A stretch of DNA of 56,353 nt from Gammaproteobacteria bacterium (GCA_047639625.1 JBLIOG010000002.1:1-56353); one strand, 5' to 3'; positions 3,540 to 16,704 are shown, counted from the first letter of the stretch. Made by a program: numbers and translations. The notes: a model not told the origin generated them from the letters alone.

Positions 3540-3663
3540 TCTGGCTGTTGGATCTATCCGTACTAGTTTCATTATAATTTAAATTTGGTTAAGTTAATTA
3601 AGATTGACTGAAACTGTGCCGCCTTTTAAGGTTGCCGGCATTTATATATAGTTGAGACATAGC

Positions 3664-5115
3664 ATGACCGAATCGAATCATAATTTCATCGCAGGCGAGT
3701 GGATTGCAGGCAGCAGTGAAGTTGCTAACATCAACCCTTCAGACTTGTCCGATACCATTGGGATGTATGCCCAGGCCGATAGTGCCCAATTACAGCGTGC
3801 GCTCGATGCTGCAACTAGTGCGCAAAAGGAATGGGGTCGTTCAGGTCTTGAAAAGCGCTATAGCGTTTTAATGGCGATTGGCAATGAATTGATTGAACGT
3901 TGTGAAGAGCTGGGTACTTTGCTGGCTCGTGAAGAAGGCAAAACACAGCCCGAAGGTAAAGGTGAAATTTATCGAGCGGGGCAATTTTTTACCTATTACG
4001 CCGCAGAATCCCTTCGCCAGATTGGTGATACAGCTGATTCGACTCGAGACGGAATTGAAGTTGATGTTCGTCGGGAACCAGTGGGTGTTATTGCTATTAT
4101 CTCACCGTGGAATTTCCCAACCGCGACCGCCGTCTGGAAAATTGCACCGGCATTGGCTTTTGGTAACTCAGTCATCTGGAAACCGGCTAATCTGGTCCCA
4201 GCATCTGCAGTTGCACTGACCCAAATTATTGCGAAACAGGACATCCCAGCAGGACTGTTTAATTTGGTCATGGGGTCTGGTCGAGAAATTGGTCAGGAAC
4301 TCATTGAGAGCCCGATGGTAAATGCGATCAGTTTTACCGGTTCGGTGCCTGTTGGTCGTCAGATTGCTATTTCAGCAGTCGCAAATTTCACAAAAATACA
4401 GCTTGAAATGGGTTCAAAGAATGCGTTAGCCATTATGGATGATGCCAATATGGATACAGCCGTTGCCTGTGCTTTAGGCGGAGCTTTTGGCAGTACGGGT
4501 CAGAAATGTACGGCATCTTCAAGGCTCGTTGTGCATTCGTCGGTCCACGATGAATTTGTCGACCGACTGGTCGCTGGTGCGCAAAAAATGGTGGTTGGGC
4601 ATGCACTCGAAGCGGATTCACAAATGGGTCCTGTTTCCAGTGAGGTGCAACTCACTCAAAATCTGGCTAATATTAAACTGGCTAAAAAGGAAGGTGGTGA
4701 ATTACGATGTGGCGGTGAGCGCGTTGAACGTGCGACTGAAGGTTATTACATGACGCCTGCAGTTTTTACCGGAACACAGAATAGTTGGCAGGTTAATCGA
4801 GATGAGTTATTTGCACCAATGGCTTGCGTGATCAAAGTTGATTCTTACGATGAAGCTCTGGCAACTGTGAACGATACGAAGTTCGGTTTGACTGCCGGGA
4901 TAATTACAACCAATCTGGCAAGGGCTACCCATTTCCGTCGACAGGCCAAAACTGGTTGTGTCATGGTGAATTTAGCAACTGCAGGAACGGATTATCATGT
5001 GCCTTTTGGTGGTCGTGGTGAGTCGTCTTATGGGCCGCGCGAGCAGGGTTCATACGCGAAAGAATTTTATACTCACGTTAAAACCGCTTACATCAGTAGC
5101 GGTAATCCCGAATAG
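3664..5115 (+). CDS. NAD(P)-dependent aldehyde dehydrogenase (2,5-dioxovalerate / alpha-ketoglutaric-semialdehyde dehydrogenase-like)
   Basis: It carries the ALDH catalytic Glu motif QLEMGSKNA and the Cys motif GQKCTASSR. The N-terminal INPSDLSDTIG resembles KGSADH-type ALDHs. The ORF opens at a TTG at 3652, but the ATG at 3664 (MTESNHNF) is the more likely start. Confidence 0.85.
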   Translation: MTESNHNFIAGEWIAGSSEVANINPSDLSDTIGMYAQADSAQLQRALDAATSAQKEWGRSGLEKRYSVLMAIGNELIERCEELGTLLAREEGKTQPEGKGEIYRAGQFFTYYAAESLRQIGDTADSTRDGIEVDVRREPVGVIAIISPWNFPTATAVWKIAPALAFGNSVIWKPANLVPASAVALTQIIAKQDIPAGLFNLVMGSGREIGQELIESPMVNAISFTGSVPVGRQIAISAVANFTKIQLEMGSKNALAIMDDANMDTAVACALGGAFGSTGQKCTASSRLVVHSSVHDEFVDRLVAGAQKMVVGHALEADSQMGPVSSEVQLTQNLANIKLAKKEGGELRCGGERVERATEGYYMTPAVFTGTQNSWQVNRDELFAPMACVIKVDSYDEALATVNDTKFGLTAGIITTNLARATHFRRQAKTGCVMVNLATAGTDYHVPFGGRGESSYGPREQGSYAKEFYTHVKTAYISSGNPE

Positions 5116-5124
5116 GTTGTCACT

Positions 5125-6114
5125 ATGTCCGAAACCAGTTATCGAATCGATGCGCTCCAATACGCCAACTGGTCTGAAGAAATATTTCAGCAGATGCGCG
5201 ATGGCGGTGTTGACGCCGTACATGTCACCATTGCTTATCATGAGAATTTTCGTGAAACAGTGGCTAATATGGAGCAATGGAACAGCTACTTTGAGCGTTT
5301 TCCGCATCTGATATTTCAGGGCTTTACCGGAGATGATGTTCGATTGGCGCGTGATACCAGTCGAACTGCTATCTTTTACGGGTTTCAGAACCCATCACCG
5401 ATTGAAGACGATATCCGTCTCGTCGAAATCCTGCACACCCTGGGTGCCCGATTCATGCAGTTAACCTATAACAATCAGTCGCTGTTGGCGACGGGTTGTT
5501 ACGAACCGAACGACAGCGGTATTACGCGGATGGGTCGGGAGGTTATTGATGAGATGAATCGAGTTGGCCTTGTCGTAGATATGAGTCATTCCGCAGAACG
5601 TTCAACCCTGGAAGCGATGGAAGTCAGTCAGCGACCGATTGTCATTACCCATGCTAATCCGGCTTCATGGCATTCGGCGTTGCGTAACAAATCAGATGCG
5701 GTCATGAAAGCGCTTGGTGAAACGGGCGGAATGTTGGGTTTTAGTATGTACCCCCATCATTTAAAAGATGGCAGCAATTGTAGCCTCGACAGTTTCTGTC
5801 AAATGATTGAACAAGCGGCTGAAACCATGGGTATCGAACATATCGGCCTGGGATCTGATCTCTGTCAAAATCAACCCGATTCCGTGGTTGAATGGATGCG
5901 AGTCGGTCGATGGACGAAAAAGATCGATTATGGCGAAGGGTCAAAATCGAATGCCGGTTTTCCACCGATGCCGGACTGGTTTGGTGGCAATAGTGATTTT
6001 TCAAATATTGAAAAAGGTTTACTGAATCGCGGATTTTCTAAGGAAGACACGGCCAGAGTGATGGGTAATAACTGGCTAAAATTTTTTGATGAAAACTTCG
6101 GCCCTGACTATTAA
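5125..6114 (+). CDS. Peptidase M19 (renal dipeptidase)-like amidohydrolase, atypical
   Basis: M19-like motifs VVDMSHSAERS, IVITHANP, GLGSD and FSKEDTARVMGNNWLKFF are present. The N-terminal DGHND metal motif is not recognisable. The gene begins 9 nt after the ALDH stop. Confidence 0.75.
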   Translation: MSETSYRIDALQYANWSEEIFQQMRDGGVDAVHVTIAYHENFRETVANMEQWNSYFERFPHLIFQGFTGDDVRLARDTSRTAIFYGFQNPSPIEDDIRLVEILHTLGARFMQLTYNNQSLLATGCYEPNDSGITRMGREVIDEMNRVGLVVDMSHSAERSTLEAMEVSQRPIVITHANPASWHSALRNKSDAVMKALGETGGMLGFSMYPHHLKDGSNCSLDSFCQMIEQAAETMGIEHIGLGSDLCQNQPDSVVEWMRVGRWTKKIDYGEGSKSNAGFPPMPDWFGGNSDFSNIEKGLLNRGFSKEDTARVMGNNWLKFFDENFGPDY

Positions 6115-6124
6115 TTAAGAAACC

Positions 6125-7798
6125 ATGAGCGATACACAAACTTCAATCAACCCCGCTACTGATCGTTTTCGGAGATCTCCGGAAACCGTCATGCGATTGG
6201 CCCGAATGGGCAGCTTTCATCAAACTCGCCTGTCGTTCATGCGCACTCTATTGCGCCGAATGAAACAGGAAAAGTGGCAGTTCAAGTGTAATCTCTGGGA
6301 AATCGACGATCAGGGTTTTGGCCGAGCTGTTTATACTGTTTACGGCCCCGAAAGAAATTATTCGCTGGTTGCTTTTTCGCACGATTTACCGGATCACATG
6401 CGCTCTGATCGCGTTATTGCCACCGCCTGGGACACAACCTTTACGTTATTTGACGGCATTCCTGAACGCGCTGATATTGAACGACTTGAACAGAATGTTC
6501 CAAAACAGGAAGCAGGACGAATTTCTGATTCGGAGCTCAGTTTGTCACGGGCCAATAAATCAGTGCGACTCTGGAATCACGTAGTCGATCGTTTGGCTGC
6601 CGGTGAGCAGCCTGATCGTGAGCAGCTTGAGTCGGTTGGATATCTGGTTAGAACAACGGCGGTGTATGGTTCAGGGAAATTTGGCGCGACTGATCGTTTG
6701 ACGATTGCAGGTCGATCAGAGGTGTCCGGTCCTTTCCAGGCGGAGTTATTATCAGTCTGGTTAACCCGAGCATTTGCCATGGATTTGTTAGAGCATGTTG
6801 CTTTGTTCAGAGGTGGTGACAATGCCGTTAAATTTGACCCTGCCTTGAGGCGACGCATTGGGGTCGGTAATTCAACTGGATTGGGTATGGCCCCCTTTCT
6901 CATAAACCACCCTGCCTTGATTAATAACTGGATGATGGCCAGAGAGGAGGCGATAGCCAAAGTACGGTCGTTGGAAACAGCGAGCAAGGACGAAGTCATT
7001 GAGTTTAAGGTCAATTTTGAGAGAGCCAGTTTCAACGTGTCGCAATGGCGATCCGAACATCCCATTCAGATCGAAAAACTGAGTGACCTGAAGGCTGATC
7101 TGATACTTATGAATCAGTATATTGATGATGAATCTCTGGTCACTAATCATCCCTGGGATCGATTTTACCGGTGGTCCGAAAAGAACCTGACGCTTGAAGG
7201 TCAGGAGTTATTAATTTCATTGATACTGGAGCCCTATGGCAGCTTAGTCGATGAATTAACTCATTGTATGGACGCCGACGAACATCGTAGTTTTTTTATT
7301 GATGGTTCAATGACGGTTAAAGCGCTGAAAAAAATAATTGAAGATCAATGTCAGTGGGCAATCGAAGAGGATTATAGCGACCCTAAACGTCGAGCAAGAT
7401 TCTGGTACTACTCGGCCGAAAAACTAGAGCCACGAGTGGGAGAACGATTTGATGAACCTGGTGCTGAATATGAAGAACCCTTGTGTATCGGTCTATTTAT
7501 CTCTGAGTTATTTGAGTGTATTTCTGAATGGGATAAGGATAAAACGGTCGCTGACTTTCTGCTCAAGCACCCCGAACATCGACATATAACTCGTCGGGTA
7601 CAAAATCTGGCCACTCAGCCCTATGCCGAAGTCCAGGACAATCTGATTGCTTCAGATATGCTGCCGATTGATCTGTTGCGTTGTAAGTTGTCATTTTTTG
7701 GTGCCACGCGTTTTGATCCTCGATCAGATCGCTGGGTCAGAATTTGTATGTATCAGGATGCGCCTTATCCGCATGAATTACTGGAAGCGGCTCCGTGA
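6125..7798 (+). CDS. Hypothetical soluble protein, 557 aa, no recognisable motif
   Basis: This is a long uninterrupted ORF starting 10 nt after the M19-like gene. Its stop overlaps the next gene's GTG start (GTGA). I see no TM segments and recognise no family. Confidence 0.8.
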   Translation: MSDTQTSINPATDRFRRSPETVMRLARMGSFHQTRLSFMRTLLRRMKQEKWQFKCNLWEIDDQGFGRAVYTVYGPERNYSLVAFSHDLPDHMRSDRVIATAWDTTFTLFDGIPERADIERLEQNVPKQEAGRISDSELSLSRANKSVRLWNHVVDRLAAGEQPDREQLESVGYLVRTTAVYGSGKFGATDRLTIAGRSEVSGPFQAELLSVWLTRAFAMDLLEHVALFRGGDNAVKFDPALRRRIGVGNSTGLGMAPFLINHPALINNWMMAREEAIAKVRSLETASKDEVIEFKVNFERASFNVSQWRSEHPIQIEKLSDLKADLILMNQYIDDESLVTNHPWDRFYRWSEKNLTLEGQELLISLILEPYGSLVDELTHCMDADEHRSFFIDGSMTVKALKKIIEDQCQWAIEEDYSDPKRRARFWYYSAEKLEPRVGERFDEPGAEYEEPLCIGLFISELFECISEWDKDKTVADFLLKHPEHRHITRRVQNLATQPYAEVQDNLIASDMLPIDLLRCKLSFFGATRFDPRSDRWVRICMYQDAPYPHELLEAAP

Positions 7799-8451
7799 GT
7801 TATTTATTAACCTTAGCCGAGTGCGAAGTTTATTTGCGTAAATGTGCCCGTGCTACGGGCCTAAGCTGGGGTATTGCAGAAGAAGCAGGAAAAACATCTC
7901 GTTGGCTCGCAGCCTATAATTTACCCGGTCCTCAAATGGGTTTGGCCCACCTGGAAAAATTACAGGGCAAGCGCTACCAGGACTTTGTTCCTGATTGCTC
8001 GATTGGAGTCTGGCAGGCAAGTGGAGGCCTACTTTGTCCTGTCATTACGGGAGCAGCATTAGCGGATCGGTCGTACAAAATGCTGCAGGGGCGAAAATTT
8101 GAACTCAGTAATGTCGCCTATCCTATTTTGCTATTGGCACCCGTTGGAATGGCGGCGAGATATTATCGAACCACTTTTACCATTCGATGGGGTTCTGTGT
8201 CTGTTAGTTGTTATGAGAATGGAATCAGGATTGAAGGTGATCGAGAAGATCTACAATCACACACAATTGACTCGGTTATCTGTGAGCCTGGTCTGTCATC
8301 AACCCAGGCTGATCAGCAGCCAATGACCCTGTCCTATGCAATTCCTGATAAAGTATGGGTTGCCATTGATACTTTATCGTTTAAAACCTATGCTCCGGCA
8401 ACCGACGCTTCGCGAGCGGGCGCAGGTGCTGGTCTGACCGATAATGACTAA
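7795..8451 (+). CDS. Hypothetical protein, 218 aa (possibly DUF3726-like)
   Basis: The GTG start overlaps the upstream stop by 4 nt. The N-terminal segment ATGLSWGIAEEAGKTSRWLAAYNLPGP resembles what I remember of DUF3726 proteins. That is recollection only and needs an HMM check. Confidence 0.7.
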   Translation: MSYLLTLAECEVYLRKCARATGLSWGIAEEAGKTSRWLAAYNLPGPQMGLAHLEKLQGKRYQDFVPDCSIGVWQASGGLLCPVITGAALADRSYKMLQGRKFELSNVAYPILLLAPVGMAARYYRTTFTIRWGSVSVSCYENGIRIEGDREDLQSHTIDSVICEPGLSSTQADQQPMTLSYAIPDKVWVAIDTLSFKTYAPATDASRAGAGAGLTDND

Positions 8452-9519: not shown

Positions 9520-10440
9520 TTAATTAATGATCGTCACGCCTTCGAGAGGGCCGCTCTGAATAGTTTTTCGTATCGTGTGTATCGTTTCTTTTCTTGGATA
9601 ATGCTTGCGCCAGGCGATTGCTACTGTCCGGCTTGGCGATGGGTCTTTAAAGGGTTTAATCTGAATCAATGAATTCATACGTTGATCGTGAATGATACTG
9701 GTGCGCGGCAAGACGGTAATTCCGGTCCCTGCGGCAACCATTTGGCGAATGGTTTCCAGTGAACCACCTTCAAGCGTTCGAGTTAATTCGCTACTGCCTG
9801 ACATGCAATTAGGACAGGCTCGAATCACCTGGTCACGAAAACAATGCCCGGCACCAAGCAACATCAAATCCTGCGATGCCAGATCTTTGGGTGGAATTTG
9901 ATCGAGATCCTGCCATTCATGATTACGGGGCAGTGCGACGATGAAGGGTTCTTCATATAATGGTGCGGTTTCAATGCCAGCTTCTTCGAATGGAAGCGAT
10001 ATGACGATGGCATCCAGAGCGCCCTGCTTTAACGAGTGAAATAAATTGGCAGTAAAGTTTTCTTCAATAATAAGACGAAGGTTAGGTGCAATTTCGTTTA
10101 ACTTGGGGATCAGGCTCGGCAGGAGATAGGGGCCTATTGTATAAATAACGCCAAGGCGGAATTTTCCTGATAAAGGATCTTTTCCTTGTTGGGCGATTTC
10201 GGTCAGAATTTGTGCTTCTTGTAAAACAATATAGGCTTGATTGATGATTTGCTGACCTATTTCGGTAATTCTGACTTCATTTTTTGAGCTTCGCTCAAAT
10301 AACCGAACATCGAGCTCTTCTTCAAGCTTTTTGATCGCTATACTTAACGTTGGTTGACTGACGAAACAGGATTGCGCCGCTTTACCAAAATGATTTTTCT
10401 GGGAAACGGCGACGACATAACGTAATTCGGTTAAGGTCAT
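9520..10440 (-). CDS. oxyR: LysR-family hydrogen-peroxide sensor/activator OxyR
   Basis: MTLTELRYVVAVSQKNHFGKAAQSCFVSQPTLSIAIKKLEEEL closely parallels Pseudomonas OxyR. The redox cysteine pair is in OxyR spacing (GHCFRDQVIRAC, C and C+9). I take the start as the ATG at 10440 rather than the ORF-track start at 10485. Confidence 0.85.
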   Translation of the reverse strand: MTLTELRYVVAVSQKNHFGKAAQSCFVSQPTLSIAIKKLEEELDVRLFERSSKNEVRITEIGQQIINQAYIVLQEAQILTEIAQQGKDPLSGKFRLGVIYTIGPYLLPSLIPKLNEIAPNLRLIIEENFTANLFHSLKQGALDAIVISLPFEEAGIETAPLYEEPFIVALPRNHEWQDLDQIPPKDLASQDLMLLGAGHCFRDQVIRACPNCMSGSSELTRTLEGGSLETIRQMVAAGTGITVLPRTSIIHDQRMNSLIQIKPFKDPSPSRTVAIAWRKHYPRKETIHTIRKTIQSGPLEGVTIIN

Positions 10441-10531
10441 AATAGTTCTAGGGTTTATCTGGGCACTAATTGTCCATAATACCATCGAACGTGCAATTGA
10501 AAACTACGAGCCAATCAAATAAAACTATGGA

Positions 10532-13308: not shown

Positions 13309-14343
13309 ATGGATATAGCTCAATTGCTGGCCTTTGGTGTTAAACAAGGTGCATCAGATTTACATCTTTCTGCCGGCCTTCCTCCGATGATTCGTGTTGA
13401 TGGTGACATTCGCCGAATTAATGTCCCGGAAATGGACCATAAACAAGTTCATGACATGATTTATGACATCATGAGTGATAAACAGAGAAAAGATTATGAA
13501 GAATTTCTTGAAACGGATTTTTCATTTGAAATTCCAGGGCTGGCCCGTTTTCGTGTTAATGCTTTTAATCATAACCGCGGAGCTGGCGCTGTATTTAGAA
13601 CCATTCCATCCAAAATTCTTAGTTTGGAAGATTTAGGTGCGCCAAAAATTTTCCAGGAAATATCAGAATATCCTCGCGGTATTGTGCTGGTAACTGGCCC
13701 GACGGGTTCTGGTAAGTCCACGACTTTAGCGGGAATGGTTGATTATAAGAATGATACCGAATATGGACATATTTTGACGGTAGAAGATCCCATTGAATTT
13801 GTTCATGAAAGTAAGCGTTGTCTGGTTAATCAACGTGAAATTCATCGCGATACCCTGGGGTTTAACGAAGCTTTACGATCTGCCTTACGGGAAGATCCAG
13901 ACACGATTCTGGTTGGCGAAATGCGCGACCTCGAGACGATCCGATTAGCCTTATCAGCGGCCGAAACGGGTCACCTGGTTTTCGGTACCTTGCATACCAG
14001 TTCAGCAGCCAAAACCATCGATCGAATTGTTGACGTGTTTCCAGCTGCTGAGAAATCGATGGTTCGCTCGATGTTATCCGAGTCGTTGAAAGCGGTCATA
14101 TCGCAAACCTTATTGAAAAAGATTGGGGGTGGCAGAGTCGCTGCGCATGAAATTATGATTGGTACGCCTGCTATCAGAAACCTGATTCGAGAAGATAAGG
14201 TTGCTCAAATGTATTCGGCGATTCAGACCGGTCAAAACGTTGGCATGCAAACCCTTGATCAGAATCTAAAAGGATTGCTAGCTCAGGGCGTCGTGGCAAA
14301 GGATGAGGCCATGCGTAAAGCGGCTAATCCAGATTCATTGTAA
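13309..14343 (+). CDS. pilT: Type IV pilus retraction ATPase PilT
   Basis: It has Walker A GPTGSGKST, Walker B ILVGEMRD and the His box GHLVFGTLHT. It also has the PilT-specific AIRNLIRE motif. Confidence 0.95.
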   Translation: MDIAQLLAFGVKQGASDLHLSAGLPPMIRVDGDIRRINVPEMDHKQVHDMIYDIMSDKQRKDYEEFLETDFSFEIPGLARFRVNAFNHNRGAGAVFRTIPSKILSLEDLGAPKIFQEISEYPRGIVLVTGPTGSGKSTTLAGMVDYKNDTEYGHILTVEDPIEFVHESKRCLVNQREIHRDTLGFNEALRSALREDPDTILVGEMRDLETIRLALSAAETGHLVFGTLHTSSAAKTIDRIVDVFPAAEKSMVRSMLSESLKAVISQTLLKKIGGGRVAAHEIMIGTPAIRNLIREDKVAQMYSAIQTGQNVGMQTLDQNLKGLLAQGVVAKDEAMRKAANPDSL

Positions 14344-14372
14344 TCAGATCGTAATTAGAAAGGGGGTTTGAG

Positions 14373-15542
14373 ATGGATCGTAACAAAGCGATAAGCTTCA
14401 TGCATGACTTGCTACGTATGATGGTTAGCAAGGATGGTTCGGATTTATTTATTACCACTGGTTCACCACCGGCTATGAAAATCGACGGTAATATGACTAC
14501 GGTATCAAGGCAAAACCTGTCACCTAATCATACTCAAATGTTGGCGCGTTCAATTATGAACGACAAACAGGTTTCTGAATTTGAAGCATCTCAGGAGTGT
14601 AATTTTTCGATTGCCCTGCCCGGAGTGGCCCGATTTCGTGTCAATGCATTTGTGCAACGGGGCAGTACAGGGCTGGTTCTACGAATCATTAATTCCGAAA
14701 TTCCAACTTTTGAAGAATTACATCTGCCACCTATATTGAGAGATATTGCGATGACCAAACGCGGTCTCGTCATATTTGTTGGGGGGACAGGTTCGGGTAA
14801 GTCTACTTCGCTTGCCTCTATGGTCGATTATCGTAATAAAAATAGCCACGGCCATATTATTACTATTGAAGATCCTGTCGAATTTGTTCACGATCATGGC
14901 AACTGTCTAGTCACGCAGCGCGAAGTCGGGGTTGATACCGATTCTTACGAAATAGCCCTGAAAAACACACTACGACAGGCACCGGATGTTATTTTAATCG
15001 GTGAAATTCGGGATCGTGAGACGATGGAGCATGCGATTGCGTTTGCAGAAACCGGACACCTTTGTCTATCGACCCTGCACGCAAACAGCACCAACCAGGC
15101 TCTTGATCGTATTATTAACTTTTTCCCCGACGAACGTCGGTCACAATTATTGATGGATTTGTCGTTGAATTTGAAAGGATTAATTTCTCAGCGACTGATT
15201 CCGAAAATTGATGGAGCCGGTCGAGTTCCGGCGATTGAAGTCATGTTAAATACGCCACTGATGGCTGACCTGATATTCAAAGGCGATGTGCATGAAATGA
15301 AAACTTTGATTTCGAAGTCTAACGAAGCCGGCATGCAAACCTTTGATCAGGCCTTGTTTACTATGTTTGAGGAACAAAAAATCACCTTCGAAGACGCGTT
15401 GCGTAATGCAGATTCGGTGAATGATATTCGACTTAGAATTAAGCTTGAATCTGATACGGCGAGAAAAATGGGCCTGGTCGAAGATCATCGTGATTTTGAA
15501 CTGGAAGAGTCGGAAGATGACGAACGTGGTGGGCTGATCTAG
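14373..15542 (+). CDS. pilU: PilU-type PilT-family ATPase
   Basis: It has Walker A GGTGSGKST, Walker B ILIGEIRD and the His box GHLCLSTLHA. AIRNLIRE is replaced by PLMADLIFKGD. The C-terminal tail is extended and acidic. Confidence 0.9.
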   Translation: MDRNKAISFMHDLLRMMVSKDGSDLFITTGSPPAMKIDGNMTTVSRQNLSPNHTQMLARSIMNDKQVSEFEASQECNFSIALPGVARFRVNAFVQRGSTGLVLRIINSEIPTFEELHLPPILRDIAMTKRGLVIFVGGTGSGKSTSLASMVDYRNKNSHGHIITIEDPVEFVHDHGNCLVTQREVGVDTDSYEIALKNTLRQAPDVILIGEIRDRETMEHAIAFAETGHLCLSTLHANSTNQALDRIINFFPDERRSQLLMDLSLNLKGLISQRLIPKIDGAGRVPAIEVMLNTPLMADLIFKGDVHEMKTLISKSNEAGMQTFDQALFTMFEEQKITFEDALRNADSVNDIRLRIKLESDTARKMGLVEDHRDFELEESEDDERGGLI

Positions 15543-15543
15543 C

Positions 15544-16704
15544 ATGTCAAAAGAGCCGACAACAAAACTACTCGAACCCTATCTTCGACTCATGGTTGAA
15601 AAGCAGGGGTCCGATCTATTTTTTGTGACTGGCGCTCCACCCAATATGAAAGTTCAGGGCAAGACAAGCCCTATCGCCAAAAAAGCATTTGAACCTGGTC
15701 AGGTCGAAAAGTTGGCGTTAAGCATTCTTAATGAAGAACAAATGAGAGACTTTGACATCAATCGTGAAATGAATCTGGGTTTTACACTCCAGGATGTAGG
15801 ACGTTTCAGGGTTAATATCTATATTCAGCGGTCTGAAGTGTCGATGGTTATTCGTTATATCAAATGGGATATTCCAACCATTGATGAACTCGGATTACCT
15901 CAAATTCTAAAAGAAATTGTCATGAACAAAAACGGGATGGTTCTTGTCGTTGGATCGACTGGATCAGGGAAATCTACCACACTTGCGTCGATGATTGATC
16001 ATCGTAATATGGCAGAGGGTGGCCATATTTTAACGATTGAAGACCCGATCGAATTTGTATTTAGGCATAAAAAATCCATTGTTTCACAACGTGAAGTGGG
16101 TATTGATACGCTCACTTATGAAAATGCCCTGCGTGAAGCCCTGCGCGAAGCTCCCGAGGTTATTATGATTGGAGAGGCCCGGGATGGAGAAACCATGAAG
16201 GCTGCCATCAACTTCGCAGATACTGGGCATCTTTGCCTAACGACATTACATGCGGTTAATTCGAATCAGGCGATGGACCGAATCATGAATATGTTTCCGT
16301 CTGATATGCGTGAGCAATTGTTGATGGATTTATCGCTCAATTTAAGAGCGGTTGTTTCGCAGCGTCTCGTGCCAGGGATGTATGGGAAATTGGCCTGCGC
16401 GGTCGAAATAATGATGAATACGCCCTATATCTCACAACTGTTGCGGGAAGGGAGCTTTAATGAGATTAAAGTAATTATGGAGAAAGGAGATATGGCGGGA
16501 ATGCAAACCTTTGATCAATCGCTCTACCAATTGTATAAAGCAGATGCGATATCGATCAAATCTGCTCTGGCTTATGCAGATTCCAGTACTAATCTCGAAT
16601 GGAAAATCAATTTTGGTGGAGAAGTGAAGCCGAAGGACACGCGACATAATTTGAATCAACAAGGTGGACTCGACGACCTGATTTTACCCTCCGATGAAGA
16701 ATAG
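15544..16704 (+). CDS. Second PilU-like PilT-family ATPase (third tandem paralogue)
   Basis: It has Walker A GSTGSGKST, Walker B IMIGEARD and the His box GHLCLTTLHA. There is no AIRNLIRE (PYISQLLREGS instead). The ATG lies 1 nt after the pilU stop. Confidence 0.9.
   Translation: MSKEPTTKLLEPYLRLMVEKQGSDLFFVTGAPPNMKVQGKTSPIAKKAFEPGQVEKLALSILNEEQMRDFDINREMNLGFTLQDVGRFRVNIYIQRSEVSMVIRYIKWDIPTIDELGLPQILKEIVMNKNGMVLVVGSTGSGKSTTLASMIDHRNMAEGGHILTIEDPIEFVFRHKKSIVSQREVGIDTLTYENALREALREAPEVIMIGEARDGETMKAAINFADTGHLCLTTLHAVNSNQAMDRIMNMFPSDMREQLLMDLSLNLRAVVSQRLVPGMYGKLACAVEIMMNTPYISQLLREGSFNEIKVIMEKGDMAGMQTFDQSLYQLYKADAISIKSALAYADSSTNLEWKINFGGEVKPKDTRHNLNQQGGLDDLILPSDEE

Follow-up and report, generated by a model that had tools for sequence, protein, structure and literature searches.

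A Four-Gene Block between mutY and yceH of a Gammaproteobacterium Is Very Probably a Minimal Homarine Catabolic Operon

The window analysed here, a stretch of 56,353 nucleotides (nt) from a gammaproteobacterium (GCA_047639625.1, JBLIOG010000002.1:1-56353), carries between mutY and yceH a block of four tightly packed genes (positions 3664-8451) that very probably constitutes a minimal operon, homD-homC-homB-homA, for the catabolism of homarine (N-methylpicolinate). The first-pass annotation had described this block as being of largely unknown function, a description that no longer holds, as the hom operon has been published and its role in the conversion of homarine to N-methylglutamate shown by knockouts and metabolomics (Ferrer-Gonzalez et al., Nat Microbiol 2026; PMC13236597). 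Its more general suggestion, the catabolism of an N-substituted small molecule including the oxidation of an aldehyde, fits the published pathway. Among the small nitrogen metabolites of marine plankton, homarine ranks with the most abundant, and no bacterial route for its use other than the hom operon has been described; through this recognition, a locus labelled "hypothetical" acquires a concrete role in biogeochemistry. The operon type is already described and named at the pathway level; the value that remains lies in how HomAB and HomC work as enzymes and in the wider spread of the triad formed by HomB, HomA, and the M19-like protein.

Correspondence with the Published Homarine Operon

The homarine catabolic operon homABCDER was described in Ruegeria pomeroyi DSS-3 as SPO3188-SPO3192, which comprise homA (SPO3188, ~700 nt, a "hypothetical protein" in an older paper), homB (SPO3189, ~1,700 nt), homC (SPO3190, a predicted peptidase), homD (SPO3191, an aldehyde dehydrogenase, ALDH), and homR (SPO3192), whereas in Cobetia sp. 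OBi1 (ACFLL8_11490-11520) the order is homE-homA-homB-homT-homC-homD-homR, with homT annotated as a "glycine betaine transporter" (PMC13236597). Transposon or deletion mutants of homB, homC, homD, and homR did not grow on homarine, and deletion of homT resulted in weaker growth. The products followed by metabolomics and isotope tracing were N-methylglutamate, N-methylglutamine, and compounds of formulas C6H9NO3, C6H9NO4, and C7H9NO5; the ring is opened before demethylation, with the N-methyl group kept, and the N-methylglutamate produced is converted to glutamate by an N-methylglutamate dehydrogenase (NMGDH, mgdABCD) encoded outside the operon. Both the phenotype and the conversion of homarine to N-methylglutamate were shown in R. 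pomeroyi and Cobetia only. The accompanying survey, which required just homABCD, counted 11,755 genomes with the operon, for the most part of Gamma- and Alphaproteobacteria and including SAR11, SAR116, SAR92, Porticoccaceae, Vibrio, and Rhodobacterales, with homA adjacent to homB in 97.7% of them and with homE and homT described as variable (PMC13236597).

The families, relative order, and sizes of these four core genes, as well as the taxa in which they occur, coincide with those of the window and its relatives. The homA and homB genes of the window overlap, so that both their adjacency and their sizes (Table 1) match the published ones, and the genes for the M19 protein and the ALDH lie directly upstream of homAB, inside the 10-kb criterion for homC and homD; by position and family, HomD corresponds to SPO3191. 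The difference from the published operons is that homR, homT, and homE are not adjacent to the block in the window. Pathways for dimethylglycine or betaine, dimethylsulfoniopropionate cleavage, carnitine, hydroxyproline betaine, and creatine, suggested by BCCT, LysR, Ldh_2, RidA, and sarcosine-oxidase genes in the neighbourhood of related loci and by the dgc operon, were also considered and dropped, the hom operon having matched gene for gene.

The close packing of the four genes, already reported in the first-pass annotation, was borne out by the open reading frames (ORFs) and by direct reading of the sequence. The stop codon of the ALDH gene (TAG, 5113-5115) is separated by 9 nt from the start of the M19 gene (ATG, 5125), whose stop codon (TAA, 6112-6114) is separated by 10 nt from the start of the gene for the 557-amino-acid (aa) protein (ATG, 6125), while the start of the gene for the 218-aa protein (GTG, 7795) overlaps by 4 nt the preceding stop codon (TGA, 7796-7798) in the sequence GTGA, a junction of -4 nt. 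The mechanical ORF of the ALDH spans positions 3652-5115 with a TTG start at 3652, although the in-frame ATG at 3664 is probably the actual start, giving a protein of 483 aa. No convincing sigma-70 match was detected upstream of the operon start, the sole match beginning at 3652, within the mechanical ORF. Promoter-like and terminator-like sites within the block were not more common than in shuffled sequences, which fits a single transcript; the block behaves as one operon, as had been claimed.

Table 1. Features of the probable hom operon and of the region preceding it.
Feature	Description	Position	Strand	Basis
Intergenic mutY-operon region	Presumed promoter/operator, 124 nt without ORF	3540..3663	+	
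homD	NAD(P)-dependent aldehyde dehydrogenase, 483 aa	3664..5115	+	Pfam Aldedh, position
homC	M19-fold amidohydrolase, degenerate metal site, 329 aa	5125..6114	+	Pfam Peptidase_M19
homB	557-aa protein of a large family without annotation or detectable known fold	6125..7798 (1,674 nt)	+	Size, position
homA	218-aa DUF3726 protein, predicted truncated Ldh_2-like fold, putative HomB partner	7795..8451 (657 nt)	+	Pfam DUF3726, model

Conservation and Neighbourhood in Other Genomes

Through the 557-aa protein, 81 distinct loci from other genomes were retrieved, and a scan of one genome per species confirmed at least 595 loci, the best 80 of which belong mostly to Rhodobacterales (Ruegeria, Roseovarius, Phaeobacter, Leisingera, Paracoccus, and Shimia). 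The DUF3726 gene was found directly downstream of the gene for the 557-aa protein in 76 of the 81 loci, the M19 gene upstream of it in 74, and an orthologous ALDH gene in 66, most of the apparent absences corresponding to contig ends. This four-gene arrangement is far beyond chance, and the co-conservation, which the first-pass annotation had left to be checked, extends over Alphaproteobacteria and Gammaproteobacteria. Identity to the proteins of the window had a median of 69% for the ALDH (range 60-83%), 70% for the M19 protein (65-86%), 58% for the 557-aa protein (56-76%), and 33% for the DUF3726 protein (26-61%).

Clustering of the ORFs of these loci gave the usual order LysR-ALDH-M19-(BCCT)-557 aa-DUF3726-(Ldh_2)-(second BCCT), in which the genes in parentheses are those present in part of the loci: a BCCT transporter between the M19 and 557-aa genes in about 26 loci, an Ldh_2 oxidoreductase gene after the DUF3726 gene in 37, and a second BCCT in 14; most loci included the LysR gene. 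The first BCCT gene sits where homT sits in Cobetia, and the Ldh_2 gene, following homA, occupies the position of homE, from which we infer that homE is probably this Ldh_2 gene. Moreover, five loci from five Ruegeria species (L016, L017, L026, L057, and L060) showed the organization LysR-ALDH-M19-557aa-DUF3726, exactly the layout of SPO3192 to SPO3188, with identities to the window of 58-59% for the 557-aa protein and 69-72% for the M19 protein.

The closest gammaproteobacterial relatives (L001 and L004) carry a bare four-gene operon, with a HomB 75-76% identical to that of the window, and on a 418-kb metagenomic contig the four genes appeared in identical order between unrelated neighbours. 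Genes encoding RidA, sarcosine-oxidase-like proteins, and ABC transporters were found near the loci of the 557-aa protein, and annotated plasmid records from Phaeobacter, Aminobacter, Pseudomonas sp. MPC6, and Mesorhizobium agree with this neighbourhood.

Some of these plasmids place the cluster in a richer setting. On plasmid pP54_a of Phaeobacter inhibens (L084 1-19632), the hom cluster lies within an island for the catabolism of methylated amines, next to genes for sarcosine-oxidase-like subunits, a dimethylglycine-dehydrogenase-like FAD/GCV_T protein (FAD, flavin adenine dinucleotide), a Rieske oxygenase with an ALDH, and a regulator of the AraC/GlxA type. In the plasmid of Pseudomonas sp. 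MPC6 (L086), its neighbours are genes for a Rieske oxygenase with an ALDH, RidA, and proteins of the mandelate racemase type accompanied by a second BCCT. A distant paralogous cluster was detected in pSymB of Sinorhizobium meliloti (L085 8229-17860) and in pAA02 of Aminobacter (L088 8232-16723), whose members are an IclR regulator, a protein resembling HomB (29-31% identity), a small partner that gave no Pfam match, an M19 protein, and an ABC transporter, without ALDH and without BCCT; a RidA gene accompanies both versions, in pSymB nearby and together with a class III aminotransferase gene. This cluster probably acts on another substrate.

The existence of such clusters raises the question of whether the operon of the window could degrade a different N-methylated heterocycle or betaine, such as trigonelline, a compound of the N-methylpipecolate type, or another pyridinium, homarine being the substrate only of the alphaproteobacterial and Cobetia versions. 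The HomB family is indeed deep, with 1499 clusters at 50% identity (E up to 1e-3) and members as distant as about 30% identity, gene clusters of a clearly distinct type occur in it, such as the one with IclR on pSymB and pAA02, and the window offers neither a transporter nor a regulator that would hint at specificity. Nevertheless, we consider this unlikely, as the proteins of the window are 56-86% identical to those of Rhodobacterales clusters with the published architecture (26-61% in the case of DUF3726), and the two validated operons, from the gammaproteobacterium Cobetia and the alphaproteobacterium Ruegeria, are themselves phylogenetically far apart.

The Aldehyde Dehydrogenase HomD and the M19-Like Protein HomC

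HomD matched Pfam Aldedh (PF00171) with an E value of 2e-146 and 488.6 bits, over positions 1-460 of the 461 of the profile, and its translation contains the catalytic Glu and Cys motifs, LEMGSKN and GQKCTA, respectively. Its best NCBIfam models were those of alpha-ketoglutaric semialdehyde dehydrogenase and 2,5-dioxovalerate dehydrogenase, both under cut-off (479 vs 770 bits), and no NCBIfam equivalog cut-off was reached.

HomC belongs to the fold family of renal dipeptidase, as shown by its match to Pfam Peptidase_M19 (PF01244; 246 bits, E 7e-73, residues 12-322), with no match in NCBIfam, and its best solved relative is the PDB entry 2i5g, labelled "amidohydrolase" (E 2e-57). In M19 enzymes such as human DPEP1 and Sco3058, the zinc site is formed by a His-x-Asp pair, a bridging Glu, and two further His, with the catalytic His provided by an LTHN motif. 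In contrast, HomC presents L11-Q12-Y13 in place of HxD, Q88 in place of the bridging Glu, and Y115 in place of the His of LTHN; thus, it is devoid of three of the five canonical metal ligands and of the catalytic His, while H155, H176, and D245 are kept. Q12, Q88, and Y115 are invariant in 65 HomC orthologues, with L11 and Y13 conserved in 64 of these, and the same metal-site substitutions are found in 2i5g. To judge from these residues, HomC is not a canonical M19 zinc dipeptidase and forms, along with 2i5g, a distinct subfamily. Throughout the annotation, this subfamily carries the label "membrane dipeptidase".

A second system with an M19-like protein has to be compared at this point. The dgc operon of Pseudomonas aeruginosa has the organization PA5396 (a putative dipeptidase)-PA5397-dgcA-dgcB, and in Vibrio dgcAB is likewise headed by this pair, with V. 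natriegens showing pepD-hp-dgcAB-fixAB; both operons thus begin with an M19-like "dipeptidase" and a small hypothetical gene. The structure 2i5g, with the degenerate metal site of HomC, is presumably a P. aeruginosa entry and corresponds to PA5396, and PA5397 is, we assume, a DUF3726 protein. As hom clusters are, in addition, often located in islands with genes for sarcosine oxidase, dimethylglycine-dehydrogenase-like proteins, and Rieske proteins, the module could be imagined to serve the catabolism of glycine betaine or dimethylglycine. However, the dgc operon has neither HomB nor ALDH and is coupled to the DgcAB demethylase, whereas neither dgcA nor dgcB was found near any HomB locus examined. 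Moreover, the published knockouts have a homarine phenotype, and the sarcosine-oxidase-like neighbours have been explained as NMGDH/sox (PMC13236597), which makes a betaine module very improbable. The pair of genes at the head of the dgc operons may itself correspond to a HomC/HomA pair without HomB.

Finally, an ordinary operon for the utilization of dipeptides or other peptides, to which the Peptidase_M19 match and the RefSeq product name "membrane dipeptidase" would point, is hardly conceivable, as three of the five zinc ligands and the catalytic His have been replaced throughout the HomC orthologues or in every one except a single sequence, and HomC is accompanied in a conserved manner by an ALDH, by BCCT transporters, and by two proteins that are not peptidases.

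The HomB and HomA Proteins

The profile searches proposed in the first-pass annotation matched Aldedh, Peptidase_M19, and DUF3726 in three of the four proteins and nothing in the 557-aa protein, HomB, for which neither Pfam nor NCBIfam gave any match and no PDB sequence was recruited at E values up to 1. Its family, nonetheless, includes more than 8000 clusters at 90% identity and consists of "hypothetical proteins", the best matches being marine gammaproteobacterial sequences with 73-79% identity. The AlphaFold2 model of HomB reached a predicted local distance difference test score (pLDDT) of 93.8 and a predicted template modelling score (pTM) of 0.92, and a Foldseek search of the PDB returned no match to it, the best hit having an E value of 0.46 and a TM below 0.2. 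The conserved residues of the family are rich in Arg, Trp, and Gly, with no conserved Cys, and include the motif G-[IV]-G-N-[SA]-[TS]-G-[LVI]-G-[ML]. A homologue from Ruegeria halocynthiae (P0458) bears in UniRef the name "EH_Signature domain-containing protein"; no such Pfam match was found in the HomB of the window at E values up to 1e-3, and the label is probably an artefact of automatic annotation.

In the case of HomA, DUF3726 was the only Pfam match (E 5.5e-14), with no match in NCBIfam, none to Pfam Ldh_2, and none to PDB sequences at E values up to 1. Its AlphaFold2 model (m02703e378772, pLDDT 89.9), however, superposed on structures of the Ldh_2 family only, as the top 27 Foldseek matches in the PDB all belonged to it (AllD, YiaK, ComC, and DpkA, the last being the delta1-piperideine-2-carboxylate / N-methyl amino acid dehydrogenase; probability 0.84-1.00, TMq 0.39-0.59). 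A comparison of HomA with Ldh_2 by hhalign yielded a weak alignment (probability 28%, 123 columns). A further likeness is the full-length Ldh_2 gene that follows homA in related loci, whereas HomA itself, with 218 aa, is shorter than the members of that family, of about 335 aa. On the basis of the model, HomA appears to be a truncated Ldh_2-like (type-2 malate/lactate dehydrogenase) fold and not an evident FAD domain.

HomB and HomA belong to no characterized enzyme family. Among the findings that would undo its view of the locus, the first-pass annotation had named matches of the 557-aa and 218-aa proteins to well-characterized families with an already described pathway; a described pathway was found, and such families were not. 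Our literature searches retrieved nothing on DUF3726, on a dipeptidase together with BCCT in Ruegeria, or on renal dipeptidase together with betaine.

Natural fusions of HomB and HomA, with DUF3726 at the C-terminus, were found in many homologues of 760-816 aa, the fusions observed (such as P0241, P0242, P0244, P0248, and P0374) covering lengths of 760-912 aa overall. One fusion gene, from a Mesorhizobium plasmid (L089 6216-8657), is part of an otherwise typical LysR-ALDH-M19-fusion-Ldh_2 cluster.

In Acinetobacter baylyi, trigonelline is degraded through tgnA-F, of which TgnAB is a two-component flavin-dependent ring-opening oxygenase. The likeness to hom is considerable, as the substrate is an isomeric N-methylpyridinium carboxylate whose ring is opened with the N-methyl group kept, followed by steps of a hydrolase and a semialdehyde dehydrogenase. 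In contrast, the end product of hom is N-methylglutamate, whereas tgn leads to succinate and methylamine, and HomA and HomB show no relation in sequence or fold to flavin reductases or flavin-dependent oxygenases. The trigonelline cluster has been cited as an analogue of hom, HomA has been stated to have FAD-binding motifs, and HomAB has been likened to the flavin-dependent TgnAB, with the prediction of a heterodimer (PMC13236597). The natural fusions described above lend independent support to that heterodimer. However, no flavin-related domain or fold was detected in HomA or HomB with Pfam, NCBIfam, or Foldseek against the PDB, and the Ldh_2-like fold suggested by the HomA model differs from the published statement on FAD motifs. 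This lowers the likelihood that HomAB is a TgnAB, although a ring opening like that of TgnAB remains compatible with the data. The question of the ring-opening enzymology is narrowed in this way to a HomB of a very large, highly conserved family without Pfam model or structural relative, a HomA apparently Ldh_2-like and fused to it in nature, and a HomC that is not a canonical zinc dipeptidase.

A Proposed Route for Homarine Degradation

With homarine as the probable substrate, the published formulas can be arranged into a putative route. HomB, with its novel fold, and HomA, a degenerate Ldh_2-like protein that may bind NAD(P)H, would associate as a heterodimer responsible for the attack on the N-methylpyridinium ring and for its opening, giving rise to a compound of the type of N-formyl-N-methyl dehydroglutamate semialdehyde. 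HomD would then oxidize the aldehyde to the acid, as C7H9NO5 fits N-formyl-N-methyl-dehydroglutamate; the resemblance of HomD to alpha-ketoglutarate semialdehyde dehydrogenases is consistent with this step, the proposed substrate being a close analogue of theirs. HomC, as a member of the "dehydropeptidase" fold family, would subsequently deformylate this N-acyl dehydroamino acid, a class of compounds that M19 enzymes hydrolyse. C6H9NO4 fits the resulting N-methyl-dehydroglutamate or its imine, and C6H9NO3 its semialdehyde. The imine would finally be reduced to N-methylglutamate, presumably by the Ldh_2 neighbour of homA where present, a relative of the imine reductase DpkA; as the window contains no Ldh_2 gene, its genome would have to supply a different reductase for this step.

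Given that HomA is predicted to share its fold with NAD(P)H enzymes and that homarine is a pyridinium similar to NAD+, a route starting with a hydride would be as plausible as an oxygenase. We can tentatively propose, as a possibility that is on balance doubtful, that HomA and HomB represent a new type of N-methylpyridinium ring-opening enzyme, not TgnAB-like, in which HomB, with a fold absent from the PDB, would be the catalytic component, and the truncated and catalytically degenerate HomA would dock NAD(P)H, with transfer of a hydride to the ring and its opening thereafter. HomB, HomA, and a degenerate M19 protein would then be a reusable module, applied to other N-compounds by the versions of rhizobial megaplasmids and by the M19 and small-protein pair at the head of the dgc operons.

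Several points weigh against the homarine assignment or against the steps drawn from it. No homR was found by the operon, which is adjoined by no regulator gene but by mutY upstream and yceH downstream, and all the homarine-utilizing isolates had homR (PMC13236597); the LysR genes of the window (9520-10485, OxyR-like, and at about 48.3-49.0 kb) showed just 23% identity to the LysR associated with the clusters. Homologues of Ldh_2 (the probable homE) or BCCT (homT) were absent from the whole 56-kb window, even though homE is present in 93% of Gammaproteobacteria (PMC13236597), and no mgd or sox genes were detected in it either. A search by name for SPO3189 among the homologues of a Ruegeria HomB, 120 of which were listed, brought up "hypothetical proteins" of other Ruegeria only and not R. 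pomeroyi. Regarding the steps, their assignment was inferred from formulas, the degenerate metal site of HomC makes a simple metallo-hydrolase role for this protein uncertain, and in the weak alignment mentioned above it is Y41 of HomA, a Phe in most homologues, that is aligned with the His of the SHG motif of Ldh_2. Our confidence in the assignment, although high, is not higher because orthology to the validated genes rests on synteny, gene size, family, and relatives at the genus level. If the block is the hom operon, the lineage of the window has a minimal homDCBA, and the genes for its regulation, for uptake, and for the demethylation downstream must lie elsewhere, in the case of the first two as homR and homT are missing from the 56 kb.

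Chromosomal Setting of the Operon

The first-pass annotation had regarded the block as a module inserted among housekeeping genes. The housekeeping character of the flanks was confirmed by Pfam and NCBIfam, which identified genes for an AsmA family protein, MutY, DUF480/YceH, DUF2288, and an OxyR-like LysR protein. The insertion itself is plausible, given that the nearest relatives (L001 and L004) carry the four genes at another chromosomal site, between a gene for an MBL-fold protein and one for a DEAD-box helicase instead of mutY and yceH. However, no compositional anomaly was found, with a G+C content of 0.42-0.50 in the four-gene block against 0.41-0.50 in the flanks, no direct or inverted repeats above chance flank the operon, and no mobility genes were seen.

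Farther downstream, the window includes yggT, proC, yggS, pilT/pilU paralogues, a pyrC-like gene, pyrB, pyrR, and ruvX. Among them, three consecutive genes for ATPases of the T2SSE family (pilT/pilU-like, 13309-16704) lie beside yggS-proC-yggT, an ordinary housekeeping setting.

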